Notes: generated from the sequence alone by a model not told the origin. DNA of 64,000 nt from a virus (IMGVR_UViG_3300033562_000573:5287-69286); one strand, 5' to 3'; shown: positions 32,028 through 63,849, numbered from the stretch's first letter. Translations and numbers: made by a program.

Positions 32028-32080
32028 AAAGAACCTTTTATTGGTATTGTGTTTAATGTTTATAATATCGGAGAAATAAA

Positions 32081-47361: not shown

Positions 47362-47643
47362 TTAGTAGTCCTCGTGTCGTTGTGTCGCAGTGTTGATAGA
47401 TATAACCAACAGACTATCAACATCCCTTGTGCATCCTGTGCTATGTATGTCAGACTCAAACGCACACGCATCACCCAAGCTATGAGCAGAGCGAGGGAAC
47501 ATATAGTGTACCTCTGTGCAGTTGTGGAATGTACGAGCAGAGCCATCCTTATCAATGACTGTCACATCAACGCCATGTCCATCAGCATTGATCTCATGCT
47601 CAAGGGTAGGGTCAAGAGTGATGCCGTTATTGAGTAGTAGCAT
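47362..47643 (-). CDS. Hypothetical protein under a reverse copy of the repeat element
   Basis: AGGAG RBS; element at 47683-47710 on the minus strand. Confidence 0.65.
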   Translation of the reverse strand: MLLLNNGITLDPTLEHEINADGHGVDVTVIDKDGSARTFHNCTEVHYMFPRSAHSLGDACAFESDIHSTGCTRDVDSLLVISINTATQRHEDY

Positions 47644-47932
47644 GGTAGCTCCTAGTGGGGTGGGGTGGGGTAGTGTTTCTCTCTACTATACTATAAGCAT
47701 CAAAGTAAAAATGTTATGAGCCTAGTCAGAGTTGTTTAAGTATCATACATATATAAGCATACAAGTAAAAAACCCAGCGTCTATGATTTCTTACTTTGTT
47801 GCTTATATATGTATGATGGGCATTTAAGGAATGGGGGTCGATGACATTTTTAGTTCCTCCTTTGGTTGTAACATTTTTACTTTGGTGCTTATAGTATAGT
47901 ATCAAAGGGATTACACAACTTAGGAGTTAATT

Positions 47933-48040
47933 ATGAAAACACTTGCTATTCTTGCTATATCGGCATTACTTATTTTGTTCATTAATATGTGGGTAGGAAT
48001 TGCTCTTATTGGCGGTTATGTTTTGGGTGGAAAGAAGTAA
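47933..48040 (+). CDS. 35-aa membrane peptide
   Basis: Element + AGGAG RBS; hydrophobic. Confidence 0.6.
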   Translation: MKTLAILAISALLILFINMWVGIALIGGYVLGGKK

Positions 48041-48087
48041 CAATTTTACTTTGGTGCTTATAGTATAGTACAACAAAGGAGATCAAA

Positions 48088-48330
48088 ATGGTATCAATTA
48101 CTCACTGCGCTTATTCTGAAACTATCCGTCAAATGCCACAAAATTATTGCCTAGCTGTTCATCGCAATAATGAATGGCTTATGTCACCCGATTTGGCAGC
48201 CGATAAGGGCATTGTAGTTGCCTTGACACTTTCCCTCATGGTACATGAAAATAAGTGGTCTAAAAGCCCTGCAAAGGCAATTTGCGGAATGGCTCCCTAT
48301 ATGGATATAGTCATTCCCGAAATTAAATAG
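48088..48330 (+). CDS. Early-module hypothetical protein
   Basis: Element + AAAGGAG RBS + terminator. Confidence 0.7.
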   Translation: MVSITHCAYSETIRQMPQNYCLAVHRNNEWLMSPDLAADKGIVVALTLSLMVHENKWSKSPAKAICGMAPYMDIVIPEIK

Positions 48331-48489
48331 TTCCGTTCTCTCGTTGGGGAAGGTGGGTAGAAATACTCGCCTTCTTTTTGCTTTAGTGCTTATTATATGT
48401 ATGATGGGCATTTATAGAATAGGGGTCTGTGACTTTTTACTTTGGTGCTTATAGTATAACAGAGAGAAACAACAACTTTGGAGCCTACT

Positions 48490-48804
48490 ATGCTTACACA
48501 TACCCAATACATGAAAAAAGAATGCACTCACCAAGAATACTATGAACAATTTATCACCTCTAGTATTCGTTGGTTTGTTGAGTCAAATTACACAAGGGAA
48601 TTTTTGCAACAATGTTTTGCAACCGATAAACACCTAAATAATTTGGGTGGAAATTGGATGAAAACCTTTGACGCTTTCGCCCTTCAAATTAAGGGCGAAA
48701 TAGCAAGAGTAAACAAGCGTTTAAATGGTTCGTCTGTTTATAGCTTGTGTGATGGTACTTGTGCTATAAAGGCTTATATGCGCCTTTATGCTGATCTTAA
48801 ATAG
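48490..48804 (+). CDS. Early-module hypothetical protein
   Basis: Element + GGAG RBS + terminator. Confidence 0.7.
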   Translation: MLTHTQYMKKECTHQEYYEQFITSSIRWFVESNYTREFLQQCFATDKHLNNLGGNWMKTFDAFALQIKGEIARVNKRLNGSSVYSLCDGTCAIKAYMRLYADLK

Positions 48805-48894
48805 TTCCGTTCTCTAGTTGGGGAAGGTGGGTAGAAATACCCACTTTCTTTTTACTTTGGTGCTTATAGTATAGTATCAACAAAGGAGATCAAA

Positions 48895-49083
48895 ATGGCT
48901 TATGTACGCAAGACTACTGACACTTGGGAAATTCAAGGTTTCTATCATGGTTCATGGGAACTTGAAACAACTGAAACAAGTCGTAAGGACGCAAAGCAAG
49001 CATTAAGGGATTATCGTAAGAATATGCCAAATATCACTCACAGAAGCGTATATAAAAGGGAAAAAATAGAAAAGGGTGCATAA
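48895..49083 (+). CDS. Early-module hypothetical protein
   Basis: Element + AAAGGAG RBS. Confidence 0.7.
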   Translation: MAYVRKTTDTWEIQGFYHGSWELETTETSRKDAKQALRDYRKNMPNITHRSVYKREKIEKGA

Positions 49084-49240
49084 CCCTTTTTTTACTTTGG
49101 TGCTTATATATGTATGATGAGGTGATAAAAAATAGGTTGGGTTGTGCTTTATTAGCTTTTTGCTTTGGTGCTTATGGTTTTTTAGGTAGACTTCTTTTAC
49201 TTTGGTGCTTATAGTATAGTATCAAAAAGGGGGGTACTAT

Positions 49241-49360
49241 ATGGAACAAGAGGAAGAATTTTATACAGAAGAATCTACCGATTATGGTAGTATTGGATTG
49301 AGTTTATTTGGTGCTTTTATTATGGGTGCATTTTGTTTAGGTGGTATGTTGTTTAGATAG
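49241..49360 (+). CDS. 39-aa acidic/hydrophobic peptide
   Basis: Element + G-rich RBS. Confidence 0.55.
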   Translation: MEQEEEFYTEESTDYGSIGLSLFGAFIMGAFCLGGMLFR

Positions 49361-49422
49361 TTTTTACTTTGGTGCTTATAAGTAATCAAGAGAGAGAAAC
49401 AAATCAACTAGGTAGGTATCAA

Positions 49423-49698
49423 ATGGCTATTAAACTCATTCAATTATCATGTAAGTTTGGTGCTCCTATGGGTCGTGCTAACGATCATATTTCTGGAAAG
49501 TGCAAGCTCCAAAAATGCCCAATGGTAGATGGTGGTGCTTATGATAATGGTGGTGCTTATTGGGGAATAGGTACTACTCTTTGGGTATGTCAAGATTTAG
49601 ATGGTGGATTCTTTTTTGTTCGTGCCAAAAATCGCAATGAAGCAAAAAAACTCATTCAAGAGGATATGCTTGCCGATGATGTAACTTTCTACCGATAA
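49423..49698 (+). CDS. Early-module hypothetical protein (GAPMGR...YDNGGAYWG)
   Basis: Element + RBS; motif recalls a widespread phage family. Confidence 0.7.
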   Translation: MAIKLIQLSCKFGAPMGRANDHISGKCKLQKCPMVDGGAYDNGGAYWGIGTTLWVCQDLDGGFFFVRAKNRNEAKKLIQEDMLADDVTFYR

Positions 49699-49771
49699 AA
49701 AAGGGGAACATTCCCCTTTTTACTTTGGTGCTTATAGTATAGCAGAGAGAAACAACAACTTTGGAGTTAAT

Positions 49772-50041
49772 ATGAGTCACGAAAGTCTTTCCCCTAGCCT
49801 TCTCAAGAATCTTTCCTTAATCAAAAAGGAACTAAAAGGAATAGGAGCAACTGAAATAAAGGTATCCAAGGGGTATCAATATGTATATTGTTTCTATACC
49901 ATTGGTACGCAAGTTTGGTACTTTAACCTTAATAATGACGGAATGTTTTATTTCCGAAAAGCAAAGGATTACAAGGATTATACAGGGGAATCTAACCGAT
50001 TCACAAAAATTCAAAAGGGAATGGGTGAATATATGAAATAA
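49772..50041 (+). CDS. Early-module hypothetical protein
   Basis: Element + GGAG RBS + terminator. Confidence 0.7.
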   Translation: MSHESLSPSLLKNLSLIKKELKGIGATEIKVSKGYQYVYCFYTIGTQVWYFNLNNDGMFYFRKAKDYKDYTGESNRFTKIQKGMGEYMK

Positions 50042-50506
50042 AGATAGGGGAGAAATCCCCTATTTTTTACTTTGACGCTTATATGAGTATGATGTGCTTT
50101 TTATAGCTAGGAAATTACCTTCTTATCACTTTGATAATAAACCCGTTTTAAGGTACTTTCTAGGCACTTTCTAACTAGGTTATATGTTTGCCTACCCTAT
50201 TGCAAAGAATAGGCTAGAATGCCCTTAAATGGGAAAATTAGCCTATATAGTGCTATATATTGGCAATGGGATAATATAAAAAGGCATTGACAAAAGGCTA
50301 AAAAATAGCTATATTACTTTTACTTTGGTGCTTATATTAGTATGATGACCAGAGTTGAAACGGCTTTAGTAAATTGAGTCTATGTATTTTTACTTTGGTG
50401 CTTATAGTATAGTAGAGAAAAGCAACAAGGTTAAAAAAGAAACGACAAACTTTTTACTTTGGTGCTTATAAGTAATCAAGAGAAACAAACAACAACGGGG
50501 ACAAAA

Positions 50507-51076
50507 ATGAACACAATTACTCACACTGAATTGGCAATCCGCATGGCTTCTGTAAAGTCTTCCTTCATTGGAATCAAGGCTTTGACAAAGCAAAACAAGC
50601 TAAACAAAGGTCGTGGCACAAGTGCAATGACTACAAAGCTAGGCATTGACCCTGAAAACATTAAGAAGTGCTTTGAAGGGGTTGTGTACTGCGGTTCCGA
50701 TTATGAAACCCTCGTGAACAATCGCTTGGCAAAGGAAAACGCTGGTTCCCAGATCAAGGTTACTTTTGAAGCTGGTGAAATGTCTGGTGTTGAATGGATC
50801 AAGGGTGCAGAAGGCAAGGTGCTTCGCAATGGCAAGGGTGAACTTCAGCTTCGCACCTATGCCGATATTTCCAACAACAAGCCAAAGGTTAGCTACCTTT
50901 TGGAAGGTGCCGAAATTGACCTCAAGGCAAGCAAGTTTGACGAATATCGCAAGCCTGCTCCCAAGGATGCCGAAAATCAAGGATTGGAAAAGACAATCAA
51001 GCCTCGTAACTATGGATTCAATTCCTTGCTTGAAATCACTTTGGACGGTGAAACATTCAAGGTCATTAACGACTAA
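50507..51076 (+). CDS. Early-module hypothetical protein
   Basis: Tandem elements + RBS + terminator. Confidence 0.75.
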   Translation: MNTITHTELAIRMASVKSSFIGIKALTKQNKLNKGRGTSAMTTKLGIDPENIKKCFEGVVYCGSDYETLVNNRLAKENAGSQIKVTFEAGEMSGVEWIKGAEGKVLRNGKGELQLRTYADISNNKPKVSYLLEGAEIDLKASKFDEYRKPAPKDAENQGLEKTIKPRNYGFNSLLEITLDGETFKVIND

Positions 51077-51260
51077 AGAAAAGGGCGAAAGCCCTTTTTT
51101 ATTTTTATTTTTTTTTTATTTTTGATTTGCGAATTGCGAATTTTATTTTTTGGTTTTTGACATCATACTTATATAAGCACTAAAGTAAAAAGAATTGTGC
51201 TTAATATATTTTTTATTTTTTACTTTGGTGCTTATAGTATAGTAACAGAGGAGAATAAAT

Positions 51261-51464
51261 ATGTTAGTAGTCAATCAAAAATTTTATGATTTTTCTGGTA
51301 ATGAAATTTTTATTACTTCTATTGATAATTTATTTTTTATTTTCTCCAATGGGGAAAAGTGGTTGAAATTTGAAATTGAATTGAAAATGAAGAATGAGAG
51401 AACTACAAAAGCGGTATCTATTTCTAATCGTATTGAGTTAGAAAGAAGGCTGAATAAATTTTAA
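51261..51464 (+). CDS. Early-module hypothetical protein
   Basis: Element + GAGGAG RBS. Confidence 0.6.
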   Translation: MLVVNQKFYDFSGNEIFITSIDNLFFIFSNGEKWLKFEIELKMKNERTTKAVSISNRIELERRLNKF

Positions 51465-51509
51465 TTTTTTACTTTGGTGCTTATAGTATAGTATCAAAAG
51501 GAGACTATC

Positions 51510-51830
51510 ATGCAAGTAACATTCGCAATATCCATTCAAGAAGCCACTGCAATTCTTTCCGAGCATTTTTCGGTTCGTCATGGTATGATGCGTACTGAAA
51601 TTAATGTTGTGATTGGTGAGGTGGATCATGTACAGAACATTCAAGAGGCTACTATCAAGATGCGTAGTGACTTGATTAATCGCATTGAAAGCCTGTTACC
51701 AAGCACAAAAATTTCGGCTATCAAGGAATTTCGTCAAATGAATCAAAATGCTGATTTGAAACAATCAAAGATTTTTATAGAAAGTCCTCATATGTGGGAA
51801 CAGTATATCAAAACAGGTGAGTATATGTAA
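51510..51830 (+). CDS. Early-module hypothetical protein
   Basis: Element + AGGAG RBS. Confidence 0.7.
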   Translation: MQVTFAISIQEATAILSEHFSVRHGMMRTEINVVIGEVDHVQNIQEATIKMRSDLINRIESLLPSTKISAIKEFRQMNQNADLKQSKIFIESPHMWEQYIKTGEYM

Positions 51831-52319
51831 GATTTTTACTTCTCCCCTAATAGTATAATATAAAGAGATTTGAACAACTATGTGGATTCCTTCTGCCTTA
51901 TAATGTTTTGGTTAACGCATTAAAATTGTCCTCCTAGTTTGAATCCTTGGCAAGTCCTTTTTTGTTGGATACTACCAAGATTCTAAATAGTGGTAATACT
52001 TTGGTGCATAGTTGTTTATTTGTTTTGTACATTCCAAAGGAAAGGACAAATAACCGATCAAAAAAGAACTCTAGAAATAGGGTTCCTTCTTTTTACTTTG
52101 GTGCTTATATAAGTATGATGCTTATTACTAATTTGGTTAGTATATTAGTGCTAAATTATGTATGGGGAAATCATAACATAATTAGCAAGGTTTTTACTTT
52201 GGTGCTTATAGTATAGTATCAAAAGAAAGCAACAAAGAAAAACTAACTAACTAACTTTTTACTTTGATGCTTATAGTATAATATCAAAAGAAACAACAAC
52301 CAAACAATGGAGATACAAC

Positions 52320-52697
52320 ATGAAAAAGTCAATCACAACCATCGCAAACACTCTCACTTCCAACACTGCCTATGTTCGTGCATATGGTGAGAATGGTAAG
52401 ACCATCACTAGCAAGCGTGGTCAAGCCATCCTTGAAATGCTTTCTTTCGTCAAGAATGATTCGCTTCTCAAGGCTCACAAGCGTTACAAGCGCAAGAACA
52501 AGGGTGCTGTGTCCTACATTCGTTTCAGCGTGTTCGTGAATGCTTTCCGTGACATTGTTCACACTTCGCACGGTAAGAAGTTGATTATGTTGCTTGACAC
52601 CATGCCTTCAATTACCTATCAATCTGTTATCAAGAATGCAAGTGATTACAAAACTTTCCTTGATAGTGCAGGTGAGGTGATGAGTCGGGTAACTTAA
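52320..52697 (+). CDS. Basic early-module protein
   Basis: Element + GGAG RBS + terminator. Confidence 0.7.
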   Translation: MKKSITTIANTLTSNTAYVRAYGENGKTITSKRGQAILEMLSFVKNDSLLKAHKRYKRKNKGAVSYIRFSVFVNAFRDIVHTSHGKKLIMLLDTMPSITYQSVIKNASDYKTFLDSAGEVMSRVT

Positions 52698-52799
52698 TTC
52701 TCTCTCTCCCTAGTTGGGAAGGAATCCTAGAAATAGGGTTCCTTCTTTTTACTTTGGTGCTTATAGTATAACAGGAAACAACAAACAACGGAGAACAAA

Positions 52800-53195
52800 A
52801 TGGAAATTGTCATCATCGGAATCCTCGCCCTTGCACTTCTCGCTGGACTCGCACTTTTCGTATTCAAAAATGCAGCCAAGATCGTTGCTCTTGTGCTTGT
52901 GCTTGTGGTGTTCATTGGTTACATTGGGTGGCATATTTATCTAAAGGATAAAGGAATCAGCCCAAAGCAAGGAATTGAATCGGTAAACAAGAAAGGAGAA
53001 AAGATTTTTAATGGTGTGATGGATTCAATGATTGGAAGCGTGTCTAGTGCATCTACAAAGGCACTTGATACAGCCAAAGAAAAGGCATTAGAAGCCACTG
53101 ACAAGGCAAAGGAAACAACCAAGAATAAAGCAACTGAAATCACCACTAAAGCCAAGAAAAAGGCAAAGGATAAGGTTAATGAAGTATTAGAATAA
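52800..53195 (+). CDS. Membrane protein with Lys/Ala/Thr-rich tail
   Basis: Two TM segments; element + GGAG RBS. Confidence 0.7.
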   Translation: MEIVIIGILALALLAGLALFVFKNAAKIVALVLVLVVFIGYIGWHIYLKDKGISPKQGIESVNKKGEKIFNGVMDSMIGSVSSASTKALDTAKEKALEATDKAKETTKNKATEITTKAKKKAKDKVNEVLE

Positions 53196-53284
53196 TTCTC
53201 TCATTCTCTCTAGTTGGAATCCCCTAGCAATAGGGGATTTTTTACTTTGGTGCTTATAGTATAGTATCAACAAAGGAGATTAAT

Positions 53285-53494
53285 ATGAATCAATTACTAG
53301 AAAAGTTCTTCAAAACTGAAATCGAACAGGCTAAACATGAGCTTCGCTTAAACTCTATAAAAATCACTTCTATGGCTGATACACAAAGAGGACTTAAAAA
53401 GCGTATTAAGTACCTTAATATGGCTAGAAAAGAAGCTGAAAAGGATGCTACCATTAACGAATTGGTAAAAAGGAAACCTAAATCAACTAAGTAA
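53285..53494 (+). CDS. Coiled-coil early-module protein
   Basis: Element + AAAGGAG RBS. Confidence 0.65.
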   Translation: MNQLLEKFFKTEIEQAKHELRLNSIKITSMADTQRGLKKRIKYLNMARKEAEKDATINELVKRKPKSTK

Positions 53495-53534
53495 TTTTAC
53501 TTTGATGCTTATAGTATAGTATCAAAGGAGATTT

Positions 53535-53696
53535 ATGGAAAACTTCATAGCATTTACATTCTTGTGGGTAGTGGCACTTGCAATAGTGTTATCAATACTC
53601 AATACTATATGGAAAAATATAGGATGTATTTTTATTGGTGCTGTGGTTTGTCTTATATCTGCTATTATGTTTCTTTCACTTGGATTACATTTCTAA
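53535..53696 (+). CDS. 53-aa membrane peptide
   Basis: Element + AAAGGAG RBS; hydrophobic. Confidence 0.6.
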   Translation: MENFIAFTFLWVVALAIVLSILNTIWKNIGCIFIGAVVCLISAIMFLSLGLHF

Positions 53697-53752
53697 CTTT
53701 TTACTTTGATGCTTATAGTATAGTATCAAAAGAAACAACAACGGAGAATATT

Positions 53753-54139
53753 ATGAGCGCATATATGGTAAGTGACAAACAAATTTCAGCGGTTCTTCAC
53801 ACTGCTATTGAAATGGGATTCCTTCCAAAAAAAGATGCCAAGCAAATTGGGCAAATTATTGTGGATGCCAATGTAAAATCTTTGGTTGCTCTGTATGGTG
53901 ATAATTCACAACAGCATAAATTTTGTTTGAGGCGTGTTCCAAAAATCTCAAAAAAGCAAGCTCATAAATATGCTCATTGCATAGAATATCAATGTTGTGA
54001 ATATAACACTTGGAAGAAAAGCAAGGCATATAAATTTCTCATGTTGCTTTGCGCCAAAATTGAAGAAAATTACGGCTTGACTTATAATGAAGTGAGTACA
54101 AAACTTTGGGAAGGTCTTAACTGGGGTTACAGAGCCTAG
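53753..54139 (+). CDS. Early-module hypothetical protein
   Basis: Element + GGAG RBS; MSAYMV...YQCCEY..W. Confidence 0.7.
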   Translation: MSAYMVSDKQISAVLHTAIEMGFLPKKDAKQIGQIIVDANVKSLVALYGDNSQQHKFCLRRVPKISKKQAHKYAHCIEYQCCEYNTWKKSKAYKFLMLLCAKIEENYGLTYNEVSTKLWEGLNWGYRA

Positions 54140-54215
54140 AAATAGGCTTTTTACTTTGGTGCTTATAGTATAGTAGAGAGAAACAACAACAACAACAACA
54201 ACAACGGAGAATCAA

Positions 54216-54587
54216 ATGAACATGGAACAAATTTTTACAGAAGCTCGTTTGGCTGGAATCACCGCTGGTAACAATGCCAAGCCTATTCCAATGACTGTTA
54301 TGGCTTGCCATCCTATCACCAATGAGCCTATTGCTGTGGTTGATGTGGTATCGGAAGGCGTTTGTGGATTCGCATGGATCAGCATGAAGGCAAACACTCC
54401 CGAAAATCGCAAGTTTATTTCTTGGGGAAAAAAGAATCAGGTACTTTCCAAATGTTCAGAAGGTTTTTGGATTTGGGTACATGAGTACAATCAGTCAATG
54501 GCTCGCAAGGAAGCCTATGCCTATGCCTTTGCAAATGTTTTGCAGAATCATGGTATCAAGTGCTATGCAAGCTCAAAAATGGACTAA
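54216..54587 (+). CDS. Early-module protein (GVCGFAW...NQSMARKEAYA family)
   Basis: Element + GGAG RBS; motif recalls a widespread phage family. Confidence 0.75.
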   Translation: MNMEQIFTEARLAGITAGNNAKPIPMTVMACHPITNEPIAVVDVVSEGVCGFAWISMKANTPENRKFISWGKKNQVLSKCSEGFWIWVHEYNQSMARKEAYAYAFANVLQNHGIKCYASSKMD

Positions 54588-54829
54588 AACGCAAGGAATG
54601 AGGCAAGGGAAACCCCTTGCCTTTATTCATTTATACCTAAATTAAATATGGGTATAAGTTAATAATAAATTTTATTTTTATCTTTTACATCATACTTATA
54701 TAAGCGACAAAGTAAAATAATGTTTGAATTCCTAGACATTACACTACATTTTGTTTGTATTATTGAACATTATTTTTTATTTTTATTTTTTACTTTGGTG
54801 CTTATAGTATAGTAACAAAGGAGAACACA

Positions 54830-55075
54830 ATGTTTACACAAGAAGAAAGACAAGCAATCTATGATTTTCTAAAGGAAATTCACGGCTATTCCCCTGCCTA
54901 TATTCGGGTTCGTGTCATGGAGTTTGTTCGTGCTATGGGTGTTCTTCGTAATACCAATAGTGAAAACATAATTGAATTTTCCAAGTGGTTGAATAACAAA
55001 TTTTGTCGCTATGAATGTAATCCCGATCATGGTGATTGGGAAGCATTGGAAGAATCAATTTTCAATGTCAAGTAA
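54830..55075 (+). CDS. Early-module hypothetical protein
   Basis: Element + AAAGGAG RBS. Confidence 0.7.
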   Translation: MFTQEERQAIYDFLKEIHGYSPAYIRVRVMEFVRAMGVLRNTNSENIIEFSKWLNNKFCRYECNPDHGDWEALEESIFNVK

Positions 55076-55131
55076 TTTTACTTTGATGCTTATAGTATAG
55101 TATCAAAAGAAACCAAACAACGGAGTCAAAA

Positions 55132-55578
55132 ATGTTCTATTGGATCTACACAAAGAAGAATGAAGTCAAGCCTATCATTTCTCGCAATTTCGCAACATCG
55201 GCTGAAGCTGTAAAGTTTGCAACTCGCAATGCCAATGATTGGACTCATGGGGATATGTTGCAAAAAGGTGAACGCTATGGTGAGTACCTTAATGGAAAGA
55301 TTCGGATTGGTTCCAAGATTGAAAGTTCTGTGAAGCCAAAAATCAAGGCTCCAAAGAAACGAATTGCAAAGAATTGTGATGTGATTGTGAGCACTAAATT
55401 TGATTTGCAAAAGGTGCTGTATTCCTTGGATTCTACTTGTGCAAAGTGGAAAGGAACCAATGCAAAGCCTAGTTCAACTATGCCCGATTTGTTCCCTATG
55501 GTTATCCATGTTCATAGTAATCGTATTTCATGGGAACCCTGTATCAATGCCGTTGATATTAACAAAAAGATCAAGTAA
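55132..55578 (+). CDS. Early-module hypothetical protein
   Basis: Element + GGAG RBS + terminator. Confidence 0.7.
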   Translation: MFYWIYTKKNEVKPIISRNFATSAEAVKFATRNANDWTHGDMLQKGERYGEYLNGKIRIGSKIESSVKPKIKAPKKRIAKNCDVIVSTKFDLQKVLYSLDSTCAKWKGTNAKPSSTMPDLFPMVIHVHSNRISWEPCINAVDINKKIK

Positions 55579-55737
55579 CTTTTTCTCTCCCTAGTTGGGA
55601 ACTCACTTGGAAACAGGTGAGTTCTTTTTTACTTTGGTGCTTATATTAGTATGATGCTATCATTTGATACTATCATTAACTTTTTACTTTGGTGCTTATA
55701 GTATAGTAGAGAGAAACAACAACAACGGAGAATTATC

Positions 55738-56232
55738 ATGGAACCTGTACTACTTTCCAAATATCGCCCAAATAAGTCCCAAGTTGCTCGTACTTGGGGT
55801 GAAGTGAATAATATCAACAAATCCACTGATCGTCGTGCCTCTTGGTATGATTGTTCTGGTCATGGTGGATATGTAGCAAATCCTTCCGATTTTACCAAAG
55901 AAGAATTGGAAAAGTTGGGTGATTTTGCAAAGGGTAATTATGATGTTCGTGTTGCCGTTGCAAAAGAGCGTTCTACTGGTGAACTCTATGTAATTGGCGC
56001 AAACTATGAACATTCCAAAAGGCGTTCTTTCAAGTATGATTCTTGGCGGTTTGAATCCGTTGAATGGAAAACAATTTCAATGATGATTTTTGAGGAAGAT
56101 TGTAATTGGGCAATTCTTACCTACAAACTTGGAATTGACTTACTTGAATGGGAAAAGCGTGGATTCACCAAAGAACAACGCATGGAAACTGTAAGACAAT
56201 CCATAGAACAATGGAATCCTAGCTATCTATAA
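55738..56232 (+). CDS. Early-module protein with GHGGY...FEEDC motif (DUF7007-like)
   Basis: Element + GGAG RBS. Confidence 0.65.
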   Translation: MEPVLLSKYRPNKSQVARTWGEVNNINKSTDRRASWYDCSGHGGYVANPSDFTKEELEKLGDFAKGNYDVRVAVAKERSTGELYVIGANYEHSKRRSFKYDSWRFESVEWKTISMMIFEEDCNWAILTYKLGIDLLEWEKRGFTKEQRMETVRQSIEQWNPSYL

Positions 56233-56407
56233 AAAGAATCCCCTTAATTGGGGATTTTTTATTTTAATTTTTATTTTTTATTATTTGTCATCATACTTAT
56301 ATAAGCATCAAAGTAAAATTTTTTGTTTTTACCTGGTTAATAATATTTTTTACTTTTGTGCTTATAGTATAGTATCAAAAGAAACCACTCACGAAACGGA
56401 GAATACA

Positions 56408-56677
56408 ATGAATCAAGCCTTTACAACCGATATGCAGAATCTTTGCTTTGATCTTGAGGGAACCACTTTCAATCGGACAAATCGTAGCAAGGGTTATGAT
56501 AACGATTGTTCTGATGATGAGCGTGATGATGCGTTCTATGAAGATCGTACTGCTATCTTTTATAGTTGGGCGAATCCTATCATTGCCAAGGTGAAAGAAC
56601 TTGCCAAGAAACATTCTGTGAAAATTTCCATTGATACAAGTGCTGAATATGGCATGATTGATGTGGAAGTTAAGTAA
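56408..56677 (+). CDS. Acidic early-module protein
   Basis: Element + GGAG RBS + terminator. Confidence 0.7.
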   Translation: MNQAFTTDMQNLCFDLEGTTFNRTNRSKGYDNDCSDDERDDAFYEDRTAIFYSWANPIIAKVKELAKKHSVKISIDTSAEYGMIDVEVK

Positions 56678-56907
56678 ATTTCGTTCTCCCTAGTTGGGAA
56701 AGGTGGGTGGAAACACTCACCTTTCTTTTTACTTTGATGCTTATATATGTATGATATAATAATACAATCGTATATCTATTATATACATTTTTACTTTGAT
56801 GCTTATAGTATAGTAGAGAAAAGCAACAAGGTTAAAAAAGAAACGACAAACTTTTTACTTTGGTGCTTATAAGTAATCAAGAGAAACAAACAACAACGGA
56901 GACAAAA

Positions 56908-57534
56908 ATGGCAAACTTCAAATACTCAATTGGTAACTTAAAAATCGGCAATGATACCTTGATTTTCAATATGGGATCGGCTACAAATTGCCCTAGCGCA
57001 AAATTGGGATTGTGTAAGATTCTAAAGTGCTATGCAAAAAAGGCTGAATACCTTTACCCAAATGTCCTCCCCTATCGCAATGAGCAAGAGGCTTTTTGGC
57101 TTGCTAATGATGCCTTCACTATTGCTGAAAATATCCAAGGTGCATTCATGCGCCACAAGGGATTGAAGTATGTTCGTGTGAATGAAGCTGGTGACTTCCA
57201 TTCTCGTGAATGCCTTAACAAGCTGATTGCAATTGCAAAAATGCTTCCTCAAATCAAGTTATATACCTACACTCATCGCAAGGATCTCATTGATTCTCGC
57301 ACTTGGGTAAAGTTGCCAAAGAATCTTGTAATCAATACAAGTAACTTCACTCGCAAGAATCTCAATTCTTTCAATGGTGTTGGTACTGTTAAGGTTCATC
57401 GTTTGGCTGATTTTGTAAAGGTCAAGGCTCATATCATTCGTGCAGGTTATGACTATGCTTGCTTGGGTGACTGCTCTGCTTGCTCACTTTGCAAGGTGCG
57501 TCATGGTAAGAAGATTGGTGTTCCGATGCACTAA
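56908..57534 (+). CDS. GP88-like Cys-rich phage protein
   Basis: GN.K, CP....C...CYA, VRVNEAGDF, YTYT, C.GDC..C..C. Confidence 0.7.
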   Translation: MANFKYSIGNLKIGNDTLIFNMGSATNCPSAKLGLCKILKCYAKKAEYLYPNVLPYRNEQEAFWLANDAFTIAENIQGAFMRHKGLKYVRVNEAGDFHSRECLNKLIAIAKMLPQIKLYTYTHRKDLIDSRTWVKLPKNLVINTSNFTRKNLNSFNGVGTVKVHRLADFVKVKAHIIRAGYDYACLGDCSACSLCKVRHGKKIGVPMH

Positions 57535-57605
57535 TCTTTTAGGGAATGAGAAATAATTTTTTATTTTTCATTCCCTTAATTTTATTTTTTAATTTTTGAG
57601 GCACT

Positions 57606-57875
57606 ATGAAAAAGAAAAAGAAAAATTCTGCTATGCAATTGGTTGAAATGTTGAATCCATATTTCAAAAATAAGGATATAAAATTTTTAAAATTTCATTT
57701 TTCAGCCTATCAAAGAAATTTTATTATTCCTTTGTTAGTTCAGCCTATTAAATCGGCTTTGGTTCATGGTAAAACAAAAATAGCCAAACAAAGATTTGAT
57801 AAATTATTTTTTGAATTAGGCTTGAAATATGATTATGATGCTCTTATGCTTGCTCAATATGTAAAGAATCCTTAA
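57606..57875 (+). CDS. Basic hypothetical protein
   Basis: GAGG RBS; no element directly upstream. Confidence 0.5.
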   Translation: MKKKKKNSAMQLVEMLNPYFKNKDIKFLKFHFSAYQRNFIIPLLVQPIKSALVHGKTKIAKQRFDKLFFELGLKYDYDALMLAQYVKNP

Positions 57876-58015
57876 AGGATTCTTTTTTATTTTTTTAATT
57901 TTTTGTTATTTCCCATCATACTTATATAAGCATCAAAGTAAAAATCACTAGCCGATAAAATTATTTTTATTTTTACTTTGATGCTTATAGTATAGTAACA
58001 ACAAAGGAGTTACTT

Positions 58016-58324
58016 ATGAACGCAATTTTACCAGCTACCCTTGACCTAGTTAATTTTCGTCCTATTGGGAAATTTTCTTTTTCTTTCTCCAAGAAAACTC
58101 ATGAACGCAAAACTGGTGCTATCATACTCTTTACAGGTGAATGTAATACTACTCACCTTCCCTTTACCATTGATGATAAGGGTATGGCATACTTGATCGC
58201 AATGATGAAGCGTGAAAAAACTGATGTATTCTTTGATGGAATGCACTGCTATACTACTGGAAATAATAGCTTGGTTATGATTAAACATCCCCTCATTTCG
58301 GAATGGATCAAGGAAAATCTTTAA
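58016..58324 (+). CDS. Early-module hypothetical protein
   Basis: Element + AAAGGAG RBS. Confidence 0.7.
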   Translation: MNAILPATLDLVNFRPIGKFSFSFSKKTHERKTGAIILFTGECNTTHLPFTIDDKGMAYLIAMMKREKTDVFFDGMHCYTTGNNSLVMIKHPLISEWIKENL

Positions 58325-58371
58325 TTTTTACTTTGATGCTTATAGTATAGTATCAAACAAAGGAGTTCATT

Positions 58372-58617
58372 ATGAAGATTATCACTCACGAAGATCATGC
58401 AACACTCAAGAAGCTCATTGACAAGACCTTTGACAATAGCGCAATTGCTTGTCACAATGAAGCTCGTAAGGGAAGAGTTTGCATTGATGATCCCAAACTT
58501 TGGAAGGGTGCGCATTCCCCCAAGGCAATTGCTGTGATTATCTGTGATGGGGTATCCTTTGCAATCATGCCCAATACTGAATTTCTATTGGCTTATGAAA
58601 AGGAAAATAAGGGGTAA
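58372..58617 (+). CDS. Early-module hypothetical protein
   Basis: Element + AAAGGAG RBS. Confidence 0.7.
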   Translation: MKIITHEDHATLKKLIDKTFDNSAIACHNEARKGRVCIDDPKLWKGAHSPKAIAVIICDGVSFAIMPNTEFLLAYEKENKG

Positions 58618-58663
58618 TTTTACTTTGGTGCTTATAGTATAGTATCAAACAAAGGAGAACATC

Positions 58664-59017
58664 ATGTTTAGATTCACCGAACTTTCTGAAACCAATAACT
58701 TCCGAATTATTCAAGTAGATTACTATCAAACTAATGGGTTCTCTGGTCCCGATACCAACTATAGCTATGCTATCATGTTTGACAGTGAATTGAATAAGTG
58801 GGTAAAGTATCATGGTGATATGAAAACAATAATTCAATTCATGCATCAATCAAGGGATGTGATCTATTCCACACTTAACAACTATACGCAACATTTGGTA
58901 AGTGATTACCTTGACTCTCGTTTATCGGAGTATTCCAAAGATTATGAAATGCGTTGGCTTAATAACATTTGTTTGCCTCATATTGGACAAGGTTGGACAA
59001 ACGAATGGAAACGGTAA
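58664..59017 (+). CDS. Early-module hypothetical protein
   Basis: Element + AAAGGAG RBS. Confidence 0.7.
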   Translation: MFRFTELSETNNFRIIQVDYYQTNGFSGPDTNYSYAIMFDSELNKWVKYHGDMKTIIQFMHQSRDVIYSTLNNYTQHLVSDYLDSRLSEYSKDYEMRWLNNICLPHIGQGWTNEWKR

Positions 59018-59072
59018 TTTTACTTTGATGCTTATAGTATAGTATCAAAAGAAACCAACAAAGGAGTTAATC

Positions 59073-59468
59073 ATGGCAACTGCAAATTTCAAAGTCATTA
59101 TTGATATGAACATCGAACTTCCCGAAGGTGATACCGAAATCACCGAAAAAGAAAAGTGTGCAATTCTTGATCGCATTCATGGTTATCTCACTGATATTGG
59201 AACAACTAGCGACGATTATGAAGGTTGCCTTGCGGGTTCTATTACCCCTCTTGGAAGTGAGTTTGAATTGGTTGTTACCGAATATCCACAGAATCCAGAA
59301 ATCTGTTTATCCCTATCGGAAGGGATTGTGCAGGGTGCTCGTGCTAATGTCCCTATCAAGGTTGATATCTTTGATATGGATGACAAGAAAGCAGAAGGCA
59401 AGAATGGCAAGGAAATCTTTGCTGAATGGTGCGTGGTTGAAAGCAAACTTTCTATTCCTGTGTTCTAA
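59073..59468 (+). CDS. Acidic early-module protein
   Basis: Element + AAAGGAG RBS + terminator. Confidence 0.7.
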   Translation: MATANFKVIIDMNIELPEGDTEITEKEKCAILDRIHGYLTDIGTTSDDYEGCLAGSITPLGSEFELVVTEYPQNPEICLSLSEGIVQGARANVPIKVDIFDMDDKKAEGKNGKEIFAEWCVVESKLSIPVF

Positions 59469-59538
59469 ACAAAAGTCCCTTAAATGGGACTTTTTTACTT
59501 TGGTGCTTATAGTATAGTATCAAACAAAGGAGTTCAAA

Positions 59539-59859
59539 ATGAAAACAGCATTCCAAGTCATTGAAAAGTCTATCAAGAATAGTTCCATGAGACTTACAGC
59601 TATTGCAGAAAATTCTGTTGATGAAGTTCGTCTATATGCAACCGATGGTGCAGGTCTTACTATCATGGTGGAATATGATCGCATCCATCCCGAAGATTGT
59701 TCTATTGAAGGTGATGACAATCATTCTCGCTTGGTTATTACTGATGAATGCAGTGAAGGTAACTTTGCTATCCTGATTCCAAAGCGTGGTAATATGCGTT
59801 CCCTTTCCGCTTGTATGCGCATGGGAATGGATAACATCATTGAAAATGCAGAGGCTTAA
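59539..59859 (+). CDS. Early-module hypothetical protein
   Basis: Element + AAAGGAG RBS. Confidence 0.7.
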   Translation: MKTAFQVIEKSIKNSSMRLTAIAENSVDEVRLYATDGAGLTIMVEYDRIHPEDCSIEGDDNHSRLVITDECSEGNFAILIPKRGNMRSLSACMRMGMDNIIENAEA

Positions 59860-59861
59860 TT

Positions 59862-60104
59862 ATGAATAAGGATGAATTGATACCTATGTGTTGTTTGGCT
59901 CTTGGTATTGCCATTGGTGGATTTTCTGTCATGGGCGATACCAAACAAGACAAGCAATCATCACCTTACTTTGTAGTGACTGATATGGTGCAATGTAAGG
60001 GAAACATTTGCAATGCAGTCCTTACTATGGATGATATTGCAATCCTTGTTCCTTATGATTCCTCAACGGTTCATGTAGGTGATAAGTTATACTTGGTGAA
60101 ATAA
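59862..60104 (+). CDS. Small membrane-anchored protein
   Basis: N-terminal hydrophobic segment; coupled to the upstream ORF. Confidence 0.6.
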   Translation: MNKDELIPMCCLALGIAIGGFSVMGDTKQDKQSSPYFVVTDMVQCKGNICNAVLTMDDIAILVPYDSSTVHVGDKLYLVK

Positions 60105-60148
60105 TTTTTACTTTGATGCTTATAGTATAGTATCAAAAGGAGATCAAA

Positions 60149-60430
60149 ATGGAAAAGACTACTCTCATCGTTCTAATCGCAATTCGCCCAAGTACATCAT
60201 ATACAACTGATGTTCGTAAAATCTGCAATGAAATTGAAGGAATTGAAATTCAAGTTCCTAATCACATTGTGAAGGCAGGTGAATTTGTACATACTCATAT
60301 TCGCAATGAATATCCAACACTTGCCTATGATGATGTACAAGTATATGGATTGGGTGATTTCATGGCATTGAATAATGATGAAGAATATCATGCTGATGAG
60401 TGGTTTATGAGCTACGTATTCAGTAAGTAA
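60149..60430 (+). CDS. Early-module hypothetical protein
   Basis: Element + AAAGGAG RBS. Confidence 0.7.
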   Translation: MEKTTLIVLIAIRPSTSYTTDVRKICNEIEGIEIQVPNHIVKAGEFVHTHIRNEYPTLAYDDVQVYGLGDFMALNNDEEYHADEWFMSYVFSK

Positions 60431-60484
60431 TTTTACTTTGGTGCTTATAGTATAACAGAGACAAATAAACAAACGGAGAACACA

Positions 60485-60769
60485 ATGCAGAAGAAAGAAG
60501 TGATTGACCCTCGTATCGTTGCAAAGAATCAACAGGAAGCCAAGAATGGTATCAAGGGATTTGGTGTAAATCCACAAGAAATTGCCAAGCTCAAGAAGGC
60601 AATTCTCACACTTGGTAAGAATGGTGAAGTGAGTGCAGTATATGACAAGTTCAATTCTGCTGTGAAGAAGTTCCCTATCATTGGTAAATACAGGTGGTGT
60701 AAGGGTTGTGAAGCCGATACCCCAAACATTGATGGTGATTGTGCCATTTGTGGGAAGTTCTATAAGTAA
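60485..60769 (+). CDS. Early-module protein with C-terminal zinc ribbon
   Basis: WCKGC...DCAICG; element + GGAG RBS. Confidence 0.7.
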   Translation: MQKKEVIDPRIVAKNQQEAKNGIKGFGVNPQEIAKLKKAILTLGKNGEVSAVYDKFNSAVKKFPIIGKYRWCKGCEADTPNIDGDCAICGKFYK

Positions 60770-60944
60770 TAAATCATCCATCATCTAGAAATAGGTGATG
60801 GATTTTTTGTACCTGGTCGAAACTTTTTACTTTGGTGCTTATATAAGTATGATGTCAAAAGTGAAAACATAATGGTGTATGTATGCTTTTTTACTTTGAT
60901 GCTTATAGTATAGTAGGAAAAGAAACCAAACAAAGGAGTTAATC

Positions 60945-61271
60945 ATGGTTACAATTACTCTCACTCTCAATATCAATGAAGAAGAACTTCGCAACATTCG
61001 CAATGCTCTTACCACATTGCAAGGAAAGGATGTGTTGAATGAGTTGGAAGCCGAAGCCGTGGAAGGCTTACTCACCCTCACTGATACTATCAAGGATGCT
61101 GTGGACAATGTACAGGACGATTCCAAGTGTCCTGAATGTGGTGCAACCGATGAAGTTGAATGGGGTTCTACTTTGGTGGACGGTGGTAGTGCAGGGCAAG
61201 AAGCTACCTGCAATAAGTGTGGATGTCATTGGAACAATCTTTACTACTTTACAAAGGTAGAAATCTTGTAA
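60945..61271 (+). CDS. Early-module protein with C-terminal zinc ribbon
   Basis: CPECG...CNKCG; element + AAAGGAG RBS. Confidence 0.7.
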   Translation: MVTITLTLNINEEELRNIRNALTTLQGKDVLNELEAEAVEGLLTLTDTIKDAVDNVQDDSKCPECGATDEVEWGSTLVDGGSAGQEATCNKCGCHWNNLYYFTKVEIL

Positions 61272-61276
61272 AATCA

Positions 61277-61305
61277 TTGACAAGAACGATTGAAATTTCT
61301 ATATT
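61277..61305 (+). promoter_or_regulatory. sigma70-type promoter for tRNA-Lys
   Basis: TTGACA-N17-TATATT. Confidence 0.7.
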
Positions 61306-61371
61306 AGTATTCTAGGGAAATGAGTTGGTAACAAGTCGCTTGCGTCATGGAAACAAATCAGAGTACCTTAT

Positions 61372-61444
61372 GAGATTGTAGCTCAGTTGGTAGAGCAGTT
61401 GACTTTTAATCAACGGGTCGAGCGTTCAAATCGCTCCAGTCTTA
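61372..61444 (+). tRNA. tRNA-Lys(UUU)
   Basis: GTTGA-CTTTTAA-TCAAC; GAGCG-TTCAAAT-CGCTC. Confidence 0.92.
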
Positions 61445-61596
61445 TTCTCCCAATGCTCCCTAGAGAGGTTTAGTGATTTACGCTCTAGGGAGCATTGACA
61501 CGATTCTATTTAATCAACGGGTCGAGCGTTCAAATCGATCCAGTCTCATTCTCCCAATGCTCCCTAGAGAGGTTTAGTGATTTACTCTCTAGGGAG
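61405..61596 (+). repeat. Direct repeat (~88 bp, period 104) of the tRNA-Lys 3' half plus downstream hairpin
   Basis: 61405-61492 vs 61509-61596, three mismatches seen. Confidence 0.85.
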
Positions 61597-61657
61597 TATT
61601 TTTTTTATTTTTTACTTTCGTGCTTATATAGATACAGAAACAACAAAGGAGTTTAAT

Positions 61658-61996
61658 ATGAAGCGTCCAGCTAATTATTGGGAACTTGTTAAGAAATATT
61701 ATCCAGATTATAATACATGCAATCGAATTAAATTGACAGTTAAATTATTTACAATGATTCGAGACAAGAAGCAAATCACTGATGATGGTGATATGTTTAT
61801 ATTTGGTAAATTTACTACTTCCGAATATTTTGCGATGCTAGAAATCACAAATGAAAATATGTCATCATACTATGATGCATCATGCGATTATATTTATCGT
61901 GTTACATTAGATTCTATGCTGACGAAACTAGCTGAAAATATGGATAATGACAAGATTGATGTATTTGATATTGACTATATGTTAGATAATGTGTAA
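61658..61996 (+). CDS. Early-module hypothetical protein
   Basis: Variant element + AAAGGAG RBS. Confidence 0.65.
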   Translation: MKRPANYWELVKKYYPDYNTCNRIKLTVKLFTMIRDKKQITDDGDMFIFGKFTTSEYFAMLEITNENMSSYYDASCDYIYRVTLDSMLTKLAENMDNDKIDVFDIDYMLDNV

Positions 61997-62047
61997 TGCG
62001 TTAATTTTTACTTTCGTGCTTATAGTATAGTATCAAAAGGAGATTAT

Positions 62048-62299
62048 ATGGTAGACAAGGAAATCAAAGCAAGAGAATCTATGATGGCACAATTGCTTGT
62101 ACTTCAAGCTCGTGTTGCATATCGTCAAACTCGTATCTTGAGTGGATTCTATAAGGGTCGTGAGGTTCGTATTGGTGGGCATGACGGTCGTTTACTCACC
62201 GAAGATGAACTGCTCAAGGATGAATTCCAAGTCATGGAAGCACATATCAAATTGATGCAAGATATTCAAGATGACCTTGCACCATCGGAGAATGACTAA
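62048..62299 (+). CDS. Early-module hypothetical protein
   Basis: Element + AAAGGAG RBS. Confidence 0.7.
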   Translation: MVDKEIKARESMMAQLLVLQARVAYRQTRILSGFYKGREVRIGGHDGRLLTEDELLKDEFQVMEAHIKLMQDIQDDLAPSEND

Positions 62300-62628
62300 T
62301 GAGCCAAGTTGATATTATCCTTGCTCGGTGCAAGATTGGTCAAGCTATTCTTGACAAGCTGATGACCATGAGAGATAGCGAAATCAAGGACTTTCTACAT
62401 AAGGTAGTAATATCCAAGAACATTCATGATATTATCTGGGATGGCTCTGTAATCCGTACAATTCAAAATGAAATAGTACAGAGTATTGAACTATGTTACT
62501 TTGATCGCATTGAAGTGTGTGCAAATGGTATCAAGCACATTCCCGAACATCGGGATTCTGAATTCTTGATCCTGTTTGATGATAACTTTATCACAACCTC
62601 AATCAAGCGTGAATTGGGTATTGAGTAA
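62299..62628 (+). CDS. Hypothetical protein
   Basis: TAATG-coupled to the upstream ORF. Confidence 0.65.
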   Translation: MSQVDIILARCKIGQAILDKLMTMRDSEIKDFLHKVVISKNIHDIIWDGSVIRTIQNEIVQSIELCYFDRIEVCANGIKHIPEHRDSEFLILFDDNFITTSIKRELGIE

Positions 62629-62671
62629 CTTTTTACTTTGATGCTTATAGTATAGTATCAAAGGAGAGTAT

Positions 62672-62863
62672 ATGACACTGAATGAAGTAAGTCAATTGCG
62701 TGTGGGATCAACACTGCTTACTAAGGATGGTAAACAATGCCACCTTGTATTGCCTACCGATTATCCACACTCAATAAGGGAATCCCCTAATGGTACTAAA
62801 TATGTTCCATTGACTACTACAATCGGTTCTATGTATCCTTCAAACCAACTAACAAAGGTGTAA
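62672..62863 (+). CDS. Early-module hypothetical protein
   Basis: Element + AAAGGAG RBS. Confidence 0.65.
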   Translation: MTLNEVSQLRVGSTLLTKDGKQCHLVLPTDYPHSIRESPNGTKYVPLTTTIGSMYPSNQLTKV

Positions 62864-62865
62864 AC

Positions 62866-63075
62866 ATGACTTGGAAACCGATTGCAGAACTACCACAAGA
62901 CTACCAAACCAACCGCAGAATGTTTGTGGTGATTGGTATCAATGTTCACCCTGTATCACCAGAACACAAGTACACTACTGATCCTGTATGTGTATGGATG
63001 GATGATGGTGCGTTTATTCGTTGGGAATGGGAATTCAAACCAACCCACTTCTACGAAATCCCCAATACTCGATAA
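62866..63075 (+). CDS. Small hypothetical protein (MTWKPI...P...W...PTHF type)
   Basis: AAAGG RBS; common phage small-domain pattern. Confidence 0.6.
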   Translation: MTWKPIAELPQDYQTNRRMFVVIGINVHPVSPEHKYTTDPVCVWMDDGAFIRWEWEFKPTHFYEIPNTR

Positions 63076-63252
63076 TATTTTTACTTTGATGCTTATATAA
63101 GTATGATACTCAAACTCAAATCTATCAACATTCTATCAACATGATACATTTTTACTTTAGTGCTTATATATAAATGTAAAAGAAGTTAAAAGGGAAACCA
63201 TGAATGGTTCTATCTTTTACTTTGATGCTTATATGTAACTAAGGAGAACTTT

Positions 63253-63849
63253 ATGTACAACGAAACTGATCTTGACATTCGCAATCGTGACAATGTTCGC
63301 AACAATGGCGAAGTATTCACACCTACTAAAATCGTAGATGATATGAACGCATTGATTCCTGATTCCGCTTGGAAAGATTCTTCTTATGTATTCATTGAAC
63401 CCACTTGTGGTAATGGTCAGTTCCTTGTCCGTATATTTGAAAAGCGTATCGCTAATGGTCTATCCATTGAAGAAGCATTGAATACCATGATCGGCATGGA
63501 TATTACCAATGACAACATTCTAGATAGTCATAAGCGTTTGTTTGAACTTGCTTGCAATGCTATGATTGAACAAGGCATTAAACCTAAGTCTAAAGAATGG
63601 TTTGAAAATGCTGTACGATTTGTTGCCATTGTTCGCAATAACATTTTTCTAGTGAAAGATTCTTTGAAGGTTATGGCTGATTATGGTAAAGGTTCTGGTG
63701 ATCTAACTAAGAAAAAATTTGTTTTTTCTGATCCTACTGGAAATAAACAAACTATGAAACCTTCTGATAGGGATGCTAAAATTTTGGTTATCCAAAAAGC
63801 ATTCAAGGATCATAAGAACACAAAAACCCTTTCACCTTTCTTTAAATAA
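63253..63849 (+). CDS. Amino-methyltransferase-like SAM-binding fragment (Eco57I-like N-terminus)
   Basis: GEVFTP, FIEPTCGNGQFL, GMDI; no NPPY/DPPY catalytic motif seen. Confidence 0.65.
   Translation: MYNETDLDIRNRDNVRNNGEVFTPTKIVDDMNALIPDSAWKDSSYVFIEPTCGNGQFLVRIFEKRIANGLSIEEALNTMIGMDITNDNILDSHKRLFELACNAMIEQGIKPKSKEWFENAVRFVAIVRNNIFLVKDSLKVMADYGKGSGDLTKKKFVFSDPTGNKQTMKPSDRDAKILVIQKAFKDHKNTKTLSPFFK

Follow-up and report, generated by a model that had tools for sequence, protein, structure and literature searches.

A putative promoter element repeated through an array of single-gene cassettes in an uncultivated giant phage

In T4-type phages, small cassettes that combine a strong early promoter with a terminating stem-loop, the PeSLs, are found in hyperplastic regions rich in ORFans (PMC2839356, PMC4122927). 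Where close relatives, such as RB49 and phi1, PST and T4, or nt-1 and KVP40, differ by an insertion, deletion, replacement or displacement, PeSLs are found at its borders (Arbiol et al. 2010, PMC2839356; Comeau et al. 2014, PMC4122927). PeSL crossovers have been mapped between the -10 and the ATG, excised mini-circles have been detected, and the -35 of T4 and PST PeSLs reads TTTACW (PMC2839356, PMC4122927). Here, we describe a comparable array in IMGVR_UViG_3300033562_000573:5287-69286, a stretch of 64,000 nucleotides of viral DNA (the window), in which a 19-nucleotide element, TTTTACTTTGRTGCTTATA (the 19-mer), stands at the head of most of the small genes. As with PeSLs and PmSLs, a stem-loop terminator, a conserved putative promoter, a Shine-Dalgarno sequence (SD) and a small ORFan follow each other in units that lie close together in a hyperplastic region. 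The units also border the indels, replacements and displacements that distinguish relatives, and crossovers appear to fall between promoter and ATG. TTTACW, as in T4 and PST, agrees with the left half of the element and is compatible with one of its two classes (class B). The idea of recombination seams is already known from the PeSLs (PMC2839356, PMC4122927); new are the proposed promoter architecture and its two registers.

The array also departs from these units. Its main promoter class (class A) is not sigma-70-like, in contrast to PeSLs, and lacks a Mot box at the right distance, in contrast to PmSLs. Neither kind of unit has a counterpart of the second register, which uses the same core, heads no gene, and lies upstream of or divergent from the A-type copies. 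Moreover, the carrier is an uncultivated giant phage for which T4-like status cannot be demonstrated. The window comprises bases 5287-69286 of a 69,286-bp IMG/VR contig, and its right end is the end of the contig, which is 19% complete according to CheckV. The ribonucleotide reductase of the contig is nearest to those of the metagenomic phage records LR756501-3 (642-735 kb), at about 40% identity, and the gene content includes 18 transfer RNAs (tRNAs) and genes for nicotinamide adenine dinucleotide (NAD) salvage. Of the sequencing runs listed in a search with this DNA, a DNA run from a microbial mat, probably the source, contains 97% of the sequence words; the others contain 13% or less, and none listed is an RNA run.

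Two other systems invite comparison. The host-takeover promoters of SPO1 and the pre-early promoters of T5 have canonical host-sigma geometry and are located in terminal repeats. The array resembles these modules in that numerous small genes, of takeover function or of none known, are gathered in one place behind strong promoters and ribosome binding sites. In contrast to theirs, its promoter geometry is non-canonical, and the contig stops before the genome ends are placed. Integrons consist of an IntI integrase, attC sites with imperfect dyads, and promoterless cassettes that are read from a single Pc promoter. An earlier note on this DNA had called the array integron-like, and a row of single-gene units split by a repeated site of gain and loss does recall an integron. 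However, no integrase or other recombinase was seen among the 40 local proteins of the array, no attC-like dyad or inverted repeat is seen in the sequence of the element, and each cassette appears to have its own promoter and often its own terminator. The analogy thus fails on all three defining features.

Anatomy of the array and its element

A search on both strands with up to three mismatches found 54 copies of the 19-mer, all between positions 47692 and 63233, whereas 100 dinucleotide-shuffled versions contained 0.16 on average and never more than 2. The count of 48 forward and 6 reverse copies agrees with that of the earlier note, and the genome-wide motif search that the note had proposed turned up no further copy at this threshold in the other 53 kb of the contig. 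With 43 of the 54 copies exact and one copy per 290 bp, the 19-mer is far more uniform and denser than PeSL or PmSL promoters. The last element lies 770 bp from the contig end, so that the array may continue past it.

The array (47692-63233) contains 37 small genes on the plus strand and about 20 plus-strand terminator hairpins. Nearly all of the genes (33 of 37) stand directly behind an A-type copy and start 12-41 nt (median 22) past element position 27; the remaining four are the second genes of two-gene units. The cassette layout described in the earlier note was therefore correct, with about 33 units in place of the approximately 40 one-gene cassettes that it had claimed. The open reading frames (ORFs) had also been described as unrelated, and indeed blastp found no pair among the 37 proteins at E<1e-3. 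Pfam matches were obtained for two of the 40 local proteins (GP88 and DUF7007), and PHROG matches for at most nine, almost all of unknown function. Like the regions that harbour PeSLs, this one is thus hyperplastic and rich in ORFans, with 12-14 of the 23 cassette ORFs of relatives absent from the contig.

Two classes are built on the same 19-mer, with 40 of the copies in the window lacking the class B tail and 14 possessing it. The 8-mers that follow the 40 non-B copies are GTATAGTA in 27, GTATAACA in three and AGTAATCA in three; three further copies are degenerate, and the others are variants seen once each. Among the 40, most are A-type: after the 19-mer comes an AT-rich 8-mer with pyrimidine-A as its last two bases, then a T-free, A/C-rich leader, and then AAGGAG or GGAG. 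The unit at 59493-59538 (plus strand) is typical: the 19-mer and GTATAGTA lead into a T-free, A-rich leader with AAGGAG, and the ATG follows at 59539. The terminator upstream of this unit (59471-59494) has its T-tract in common with the element.

Such overlap is frequent. Terminator-like hairpins number 30, about three times the 10.6 +/- 3.5 expected, and in about 12 plus-strand hairpins, mostly with GAAA loops, the U-tract passes directly into the TTTTAC of the element. Thirteen other genes end 0-3 nt ahead of the next element. Both observations agree with the earlier note, according to which the previous U-tract supplies the first Ts of the element, or else the stop codon abuts it. A 3' module of 70-76 nt, common to several of these hairpins and in which the motif TCTCCCTAGTTGGGAA is followed by a GAAA-tetraloop terminator with its U-tract running into the element, is repeated on the plus strand at 48323-48398, 48797-48872, 52695-52765, 55585-55645 and 56673-56748. 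In the excess of hairpins, the common T-tracts and the repeated 3' modules, the units show the coupling of promoter to terminating stem-loop that is typical of PeSLs. The TCTCCCTAGTTGGGAA motif can also fold into a small extra hairpin ahead of the terminator.

The class B tail, T-N-N-GTATGAT, adds 3 bp to the common core relative to class A and creates TTTACT-N16-TATGAT, a sigma-70-like arrangement that was also caught by a promoter consensus scan. None of the 14 class B copies heads a gene directly. Ten of them precede, by 55-100 bp, an A-type copy in the same orientation. The other four, on the minus strand, are divergent from an A-type copy about 46 bp away and aim into the bidirectional terminator of the preceding gene. 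The RNAs predicted for these solo units (51124-51190, 54651-54717, 56252-56318 and 57877-57943) have 50-80 nt each, with an unstructured, A-rich 5' part, a terminal hairpin and a U-tail. They could act as small RNAs or insulators, or their synthesis could be coupled by supercoiling to the divergent A promoter.

Cassette turnover at the elements

When metagenome contigs were scanned for the element, 100 stretches were returned, nearly all of them single chance matches. Multiple copies, 2-9 each, were found on eight short contigs, which come from at least three data sets (six from OGVR01, the others from Ga0116183 and Ga0137347). Of the 30 19-mers on these contigs, 21 are exact, and identity to the consensus is 97.4%, while the common genes have 69-88% nucleotide identity. 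The A-type tails vary by lineage (TATAATCA, TAGTAACA, ATAATACA, TGTAATCA), and the class B tail is conserved. Since the 19-mer has stayed nearly constant where genes and A tails have diverged, the comparison indicates that it is under strong selection and not merely recently duplicated.

The earlier note had suggested that the element provides homology for the gain, loss and shuffling of cassettes, and had proposed a comparison of gene order with relatives. The relatives do differ by single cassettes, with breakpoints in the element or the leader. The most informative contig, L105, is 99-100% identical to the window, and at 55627-55737, where a class B and a class A copy stand in tandem on the plus strand, it contains one extra unit with an A tail, an 81-aa ORF and its own terminator. 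The two sequences agree up to the final base of one 19-mer and match again from a few bases ahead of the next. The following ORF is replaced as well; here promoter and leader are shared in full, and divergence sets in 4 nt ahead of the ATG.

In other relatives, the differences are apparent at the level of cassettes. The plus-strand region 58326-59538, with the cassettes g58372, g58664 and g59073 (named by gene start), is rearranged in two of them. L012 lacks g58664, joins the homologues of g58372 and g59073 via one element, and has other genes in the slots of g58016 and g59539. In L094, the g58016 homologue directly follows the g59073 homologue and its conserved terminator. L053 is without g48490 and g48895 and has extra units, and L108 is without g53285 and has a replacement for g53753. 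The unit-bounded indels and replacements known from PeSLs are thus found here to the base in L105, and to the cassette in L012, L053, L094 and L108. Altogether, the comparisons support a picture in which single cassettes are gained, lost, replaced and relocated, with junctions in the element or leader. Of 23 cassette ORFs of the relatives, nine have clear homologues on the 69-kb contig, two short membrane peptides have weak matches, and 12 have none.

One cassette gene of the relatives, with a product starting MN[A/T]PIKVLTNGNKRLEI, is absent from the window and occupies two slots elsewhere. In L105 (958-1150) it is found in the g55738 slot, two cassettes after g55132, and in L012 (1243-1839, reverse complement) it follows the g59073 homologue.

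A test for clustering of the G/A polymorphism at position 11, which would be a sign of local gene conversion, gave a weak result (runs test P=0.54; post-hoc comparison of halves P=0.018). No multi-copy carrier of the 19-mer was found in IMG/VR, among GenBank phages, in 185,579 prokaryote genomes or in 63 viral loci with sigma homologues. A scan for loci with the GP88-like cassette protein returned only the contig itself, and a full-text literature search for the element sequence gave no match.

Geometry of the putative promoter and its candidate readers

The main class was described from 61 copies, pooled from the window and its relatives, that lack the class B tail. They do not vary at positions 1-9 and hardly at 12-19, with variation at 10 and 11. 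Positions 20-25 contain only A, T or G, a pyrimidine follows at 26 in 60 of the 61 copies and an A at 27 in 57, and T occurs at positions 29-35 in 0-2 copies. Start sites of bacterial RNA polymerase (RNAP) are usually marked by a pyrimidine followed by a purine at a constant distance. Since genes downstream of strong terminators must have a start of their own, and nothing other than the element is conserved from the terminator to the ribosome binding site, we infer that the element is a promoter. Transcription most likely starts at A27, because this start would keep the SD everywhere, whereas a start at 32-35 would cut it off in some units (in nine of the 33 cassettes, the SD core starts no later than element position 35, and in one at 29).

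The hexamer TATAGT occurs twice, overlapping, at positions 16-21 and 21-26, and TTTACT lies 8 or 13 bp away. With a start at A27, the first copy becomes the -10-like hexamer, 8 bp from TTTACT, and the canonical -35 position falls upstream of the 19-mer, where there is no conservation. A -10 at positions 21-26 was rejected, because the sigma-70-type start at about 32-35 that goes with it would strip the SD from 5-9 cassettes. The spacing of 13 nt between TTTACT and TATAGT in the earlier note is thus literally right, while its pairing with the second TATAGT is not favoured by the SD positions. The conclusion that the main class does not have sigma-70 geometry holds for either choice of -10. In this respect, the 33 gene-heading A-type units differ from PeSLs, with their early promoters of -35, N17 and -10; the 14 gene-less class B copies approach this layout at N16.

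Other known promoter types were considered for class A. Mot boxes, TGCTT(T/C)A, are centred near -30, at 12 +/- 1 bp upstream of the -10; in the element, any -10-like hexamer overlaps TGCTTA (positions 12-17) or follows within 6 bp downstream, and this geometry was therefore rejected. A sigma-54 promoter was rejected for want of a GG/GC pair at the right spacing. A Bacteroidota -33/-7 promoter was rejected as well, since the element reads TACTTTG and not TAnnTTTG, and since the strong SDs speak against such a host.

The window also contains 11 near-perfect TTGACA-N17-(C)TATATT promoters, which precede the tRNA array, NAD-salvage genes, an RNA ligase gene and a tRNA-Lys gene, and one of which (50287) lies inside the array. 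The class, TTGACA-N17-(T/G)CTATATT, is found at 1019, 12343(-), 12691(-), 14130, 16119, 18175, 21535, 27178(-), 43268(-), 50287 and 61277. A TATAAAC motif stands ahead of other genes. The phage also encodes a sigma-70-family factor of 250 aa with regions 2 and 4 (33199-33951, plus strand), behind a terminator-like hairpin and a TTTACA-N17-TATATT promoter. Its closest solved relatives are cyanobacterial SigA proteins. It has WWIKCTINR where primary sigmas have WWIRQAITR, and SHENVRT for TRERIRQ. The altered residues are presumably equivalent to E. coli 437/440 (region 2.4, -12 contact) and 584/589 (region 4.2, -35 contact). Altered promoter specificity of the factor is therefore plausible, and we regard it as a candidate reader of the A-type element. 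Sigma homologues with 52-93% identity are found on short metagenome contigs. A relative of 165 kb (G001), with a sigma that is 52% identical, shares the canonical promoters (14 copies) and the TATAAAC motif; it has no 19-mer and no other dispersed repeat.

We consider it probable that the array is a hyperplastic ORFan module of PeSL-type composite units of terminator, promoter and leader, with the 19-mer as the recognition block of a phage-specific promoter. The 19-mer would be recognized sequence-specifically, and the AT-rich 8-mer would end at the start, position 27. Transcripts would then begin with T-free, A-rich leaders of 12-41 nt and a strong SD, and the U-tract of a preceding terminator would double as the 5' end of the element. 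Because the units of 60-130 bp are nearly identical, homologous recombination between them could delete, insert, replace or relocate single genes, which would stay expressed and insulated. In the preferred cascade, host RNAP would read the canonical TTGACA-N17-TATATT promoters and class B, and a canonical promoter would drive the phage sigma gene. The phage sigma, or another phage factor, would then read the A-type copies.

A tentative further step would take the two registers of the 19-mer as a temporal switch. Class B would be used with host sigma, and class A would be accessible only to a holoenzyme that the phage specifies, the promoter block being directly adjacent to the -10 and the start at A27. 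The reader would be the sigma of 33199-33951, altered in regions 2.4 and 4.2, or another factor or polymerase, and the units would be the recombination seams of a giant-phage cassette library. We treat this combination as possible but doubtful.

Several points weigh against the phage-specific, recombining promoter. A class under the control of the sigma should be found at genes outside the array as well, but neither the 53 kb of metabolic genes nor the 165-kb relative contains the 19-mer, which weakens the link between the phage sigma and class A. Class A fits no known spacing of the sigma-70 family, with TTTACT 8 or 13 bp from TATAGT, so that its promoter function is suggested by context. As to turnover, gene-level indels that survive map to intergenic DNA under any mechanism, since selection removes the others, and base-level junctions come from L105, the other relatives being informative at the level of cassettes. 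Moreover, the relatives are contigs of 1-2 kb, and chimeric assembly across a repeat of 19-60 bp could mimic rearrangement. Nevertheless, three independent data sets agree, and together with the exact, 19-mer-bounded indel in a near-identical background this argues for real recombination between repeats.

Alternatively, both classes could be ordinary early promoters that are read by unmodified host primary-sigma holoenzyme right after infection, as in the takeover modules of T4, SPO1 and T5 and in strict PeSLs. The left half of the element, TTTTACTTT, resembles the early -35 of T4 and PST, class B offers TTTACT-N16-TATGAT, and the A-type copies hold a good TATAGT. Confinement to one module of tiny ORFans is also typical of early takeover regions. 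However, 8 or 13 bp separate the -35-like hexamer of the A-type copies from TATAGT, there is no conservation at the canonical -35 position, and the textbook TTGACA-N17-TATATT elsewhere in the genome suggests a canonical preference of the host enzyme. This alternative therefore seems unlikely to us. If host RNAP did read class A unaided, the array would simply be an ordinary early-gene region.

A promoter of a phage-encoded RNAP, or of a virion-delivered factor, from the missing 80% or so of the genome would explain other features. The layout would be T7-like, with binding to the 19-mer, melting of the 8-mer and a start at A27. The long invariant block, the AT-rich variable block and the fixed start dinucleotide fit such an arrangement, as do a tail that varies between lineages while the 19-mer does not, and a geometry that is not sigma-70-like. 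On the other hand, no RNAP gene was seen in the 69 kb of this incomplete genome (the 165-kb relative was not searched for one), and U-tract hairpin terminators and a -10-like TATAGT suit a bacterial RNAP. In promoters of T7-type single-subunit RNAPs, an invariant block of about 20 bp ends in TATA immediately ahead of a +1 purine. The invariant block of the element ends in TATA too, but a T7-like start right after it was rejected, since the next base (position 20) is G, A or T and the conserved pyrimidine-A step follows 7-8 nt further on. We judge a polymerase or virion factor of this kind to be improbable. Finally, it is very unlikely that the 19-mer is mainly an operator (a shut-off repressor site over weak promoters) or the target of a dedicated recombinase: conservation beyond the usual need of a promoter, and its presence in gene-less copies and in both orientations, would fit, but its orientation and distance to SD and ATG are fixed, it has no dyad symmetry, no recombinase or DNA-binding family was found among the 40 local proteins (Pfam, PHROG), and genes downstream of terminators would have no promoter whatsoever.

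With this array, promoter/terminator cassette shuffling of the PeSL type, known from cultured T4-like phages, is found in an uncultivated giant phage as well, and cassette turnover becomes directly visible in environmental metagenomes. If the phage sigma or a new factor reads the 19-mer, the element would be a compact, orthogonal and very uniform promoter with a defined terminator partner. The approximately 33 cassettes, and the novel ones in relatives, would then represent co-regulated small proteins of unknown function that are worth screening for roles in host takeover and counter-defence. If the 19-mer is indeed used in two registers, its promoter architecture would have no described counterpart among sigma-70-family factors. 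Expression early in infection was proposed in the earlier note by analogy and may apply; that the cassette ORFs form an anti-defence library is a guess.

Composite regions of putative promoters and minor features

At the left edge of the array, 47692-47893 forms a divergent control region, with A(-) at 47692, B(-) at 47752, B(+) at 47789 and A(+) at 47875. The minus-strand pair would drive the leftward gene 47643-47362, and the plus-strand pair would open the rightward array. Four tandem plus-strand promoters (50287-50506) are predicted before the gene 50507-51076, namely a TTGACA-N17-TATATT at 50287, a class B copy at 50318, an A copy at 50388 and an A' copy at 50452. A double-promoter block of 141 bp from this region (50369-50509) is repeated with 94% identity at 56770-56910, 6.4 kb away.

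The array also embeds a tRNA-Lys(UUU) gene (61371-61445) with its canonical TTGACA-N17-TATATT promoter (61277-61445 together, plus strand); this tRNA was the sole match in an Rfam scan. A direct duplication of 92 nt (61405-61496 and 61509-61600, 96% identical) comprises the 3' part of the tRNA and about 50 nt downstream, including the CCCTAGAGAG/CTCTAGGG hairpin, and has left a partial tRNA copy behind. Four stretches of 200-260 nt within the array have no convincing ORF (50065-50287, 51830-52091, 54587-54788 and 61445-61610). Two of them are downstream of a class B promoter, and non-coding RNAs are possible, although Rfam reported nothing there.

The GP88-family protein (56908-57534), which has Cys clusters, is one of only two cassette proteins with a recognisable domain. 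The other, encoded beyond the last element at 63253-63849, is a 198-aa protein with an N6-methyltransferase-like FxEPxCGxGxF motif, which matches only the N-terminal part of the methyltransferase model. Mobile endonucleases are present outside the array and not within it. A GIY-YIG homing-endonuclease ORF (31209-32237, minus strand) overlaps the start of the thymidylate synthase gene (32081-33103), and an HNH endonuclease is encoded at 37416-39071. Lastly, simple repeats occur in leaders, with (CAA)x8 at 54176-54205 ahead of gene 54216, and CCCCA x3 at 47643-47680 (minus strand) ahead of the leftward gene 47643. The length of these repeats may differ between strains.

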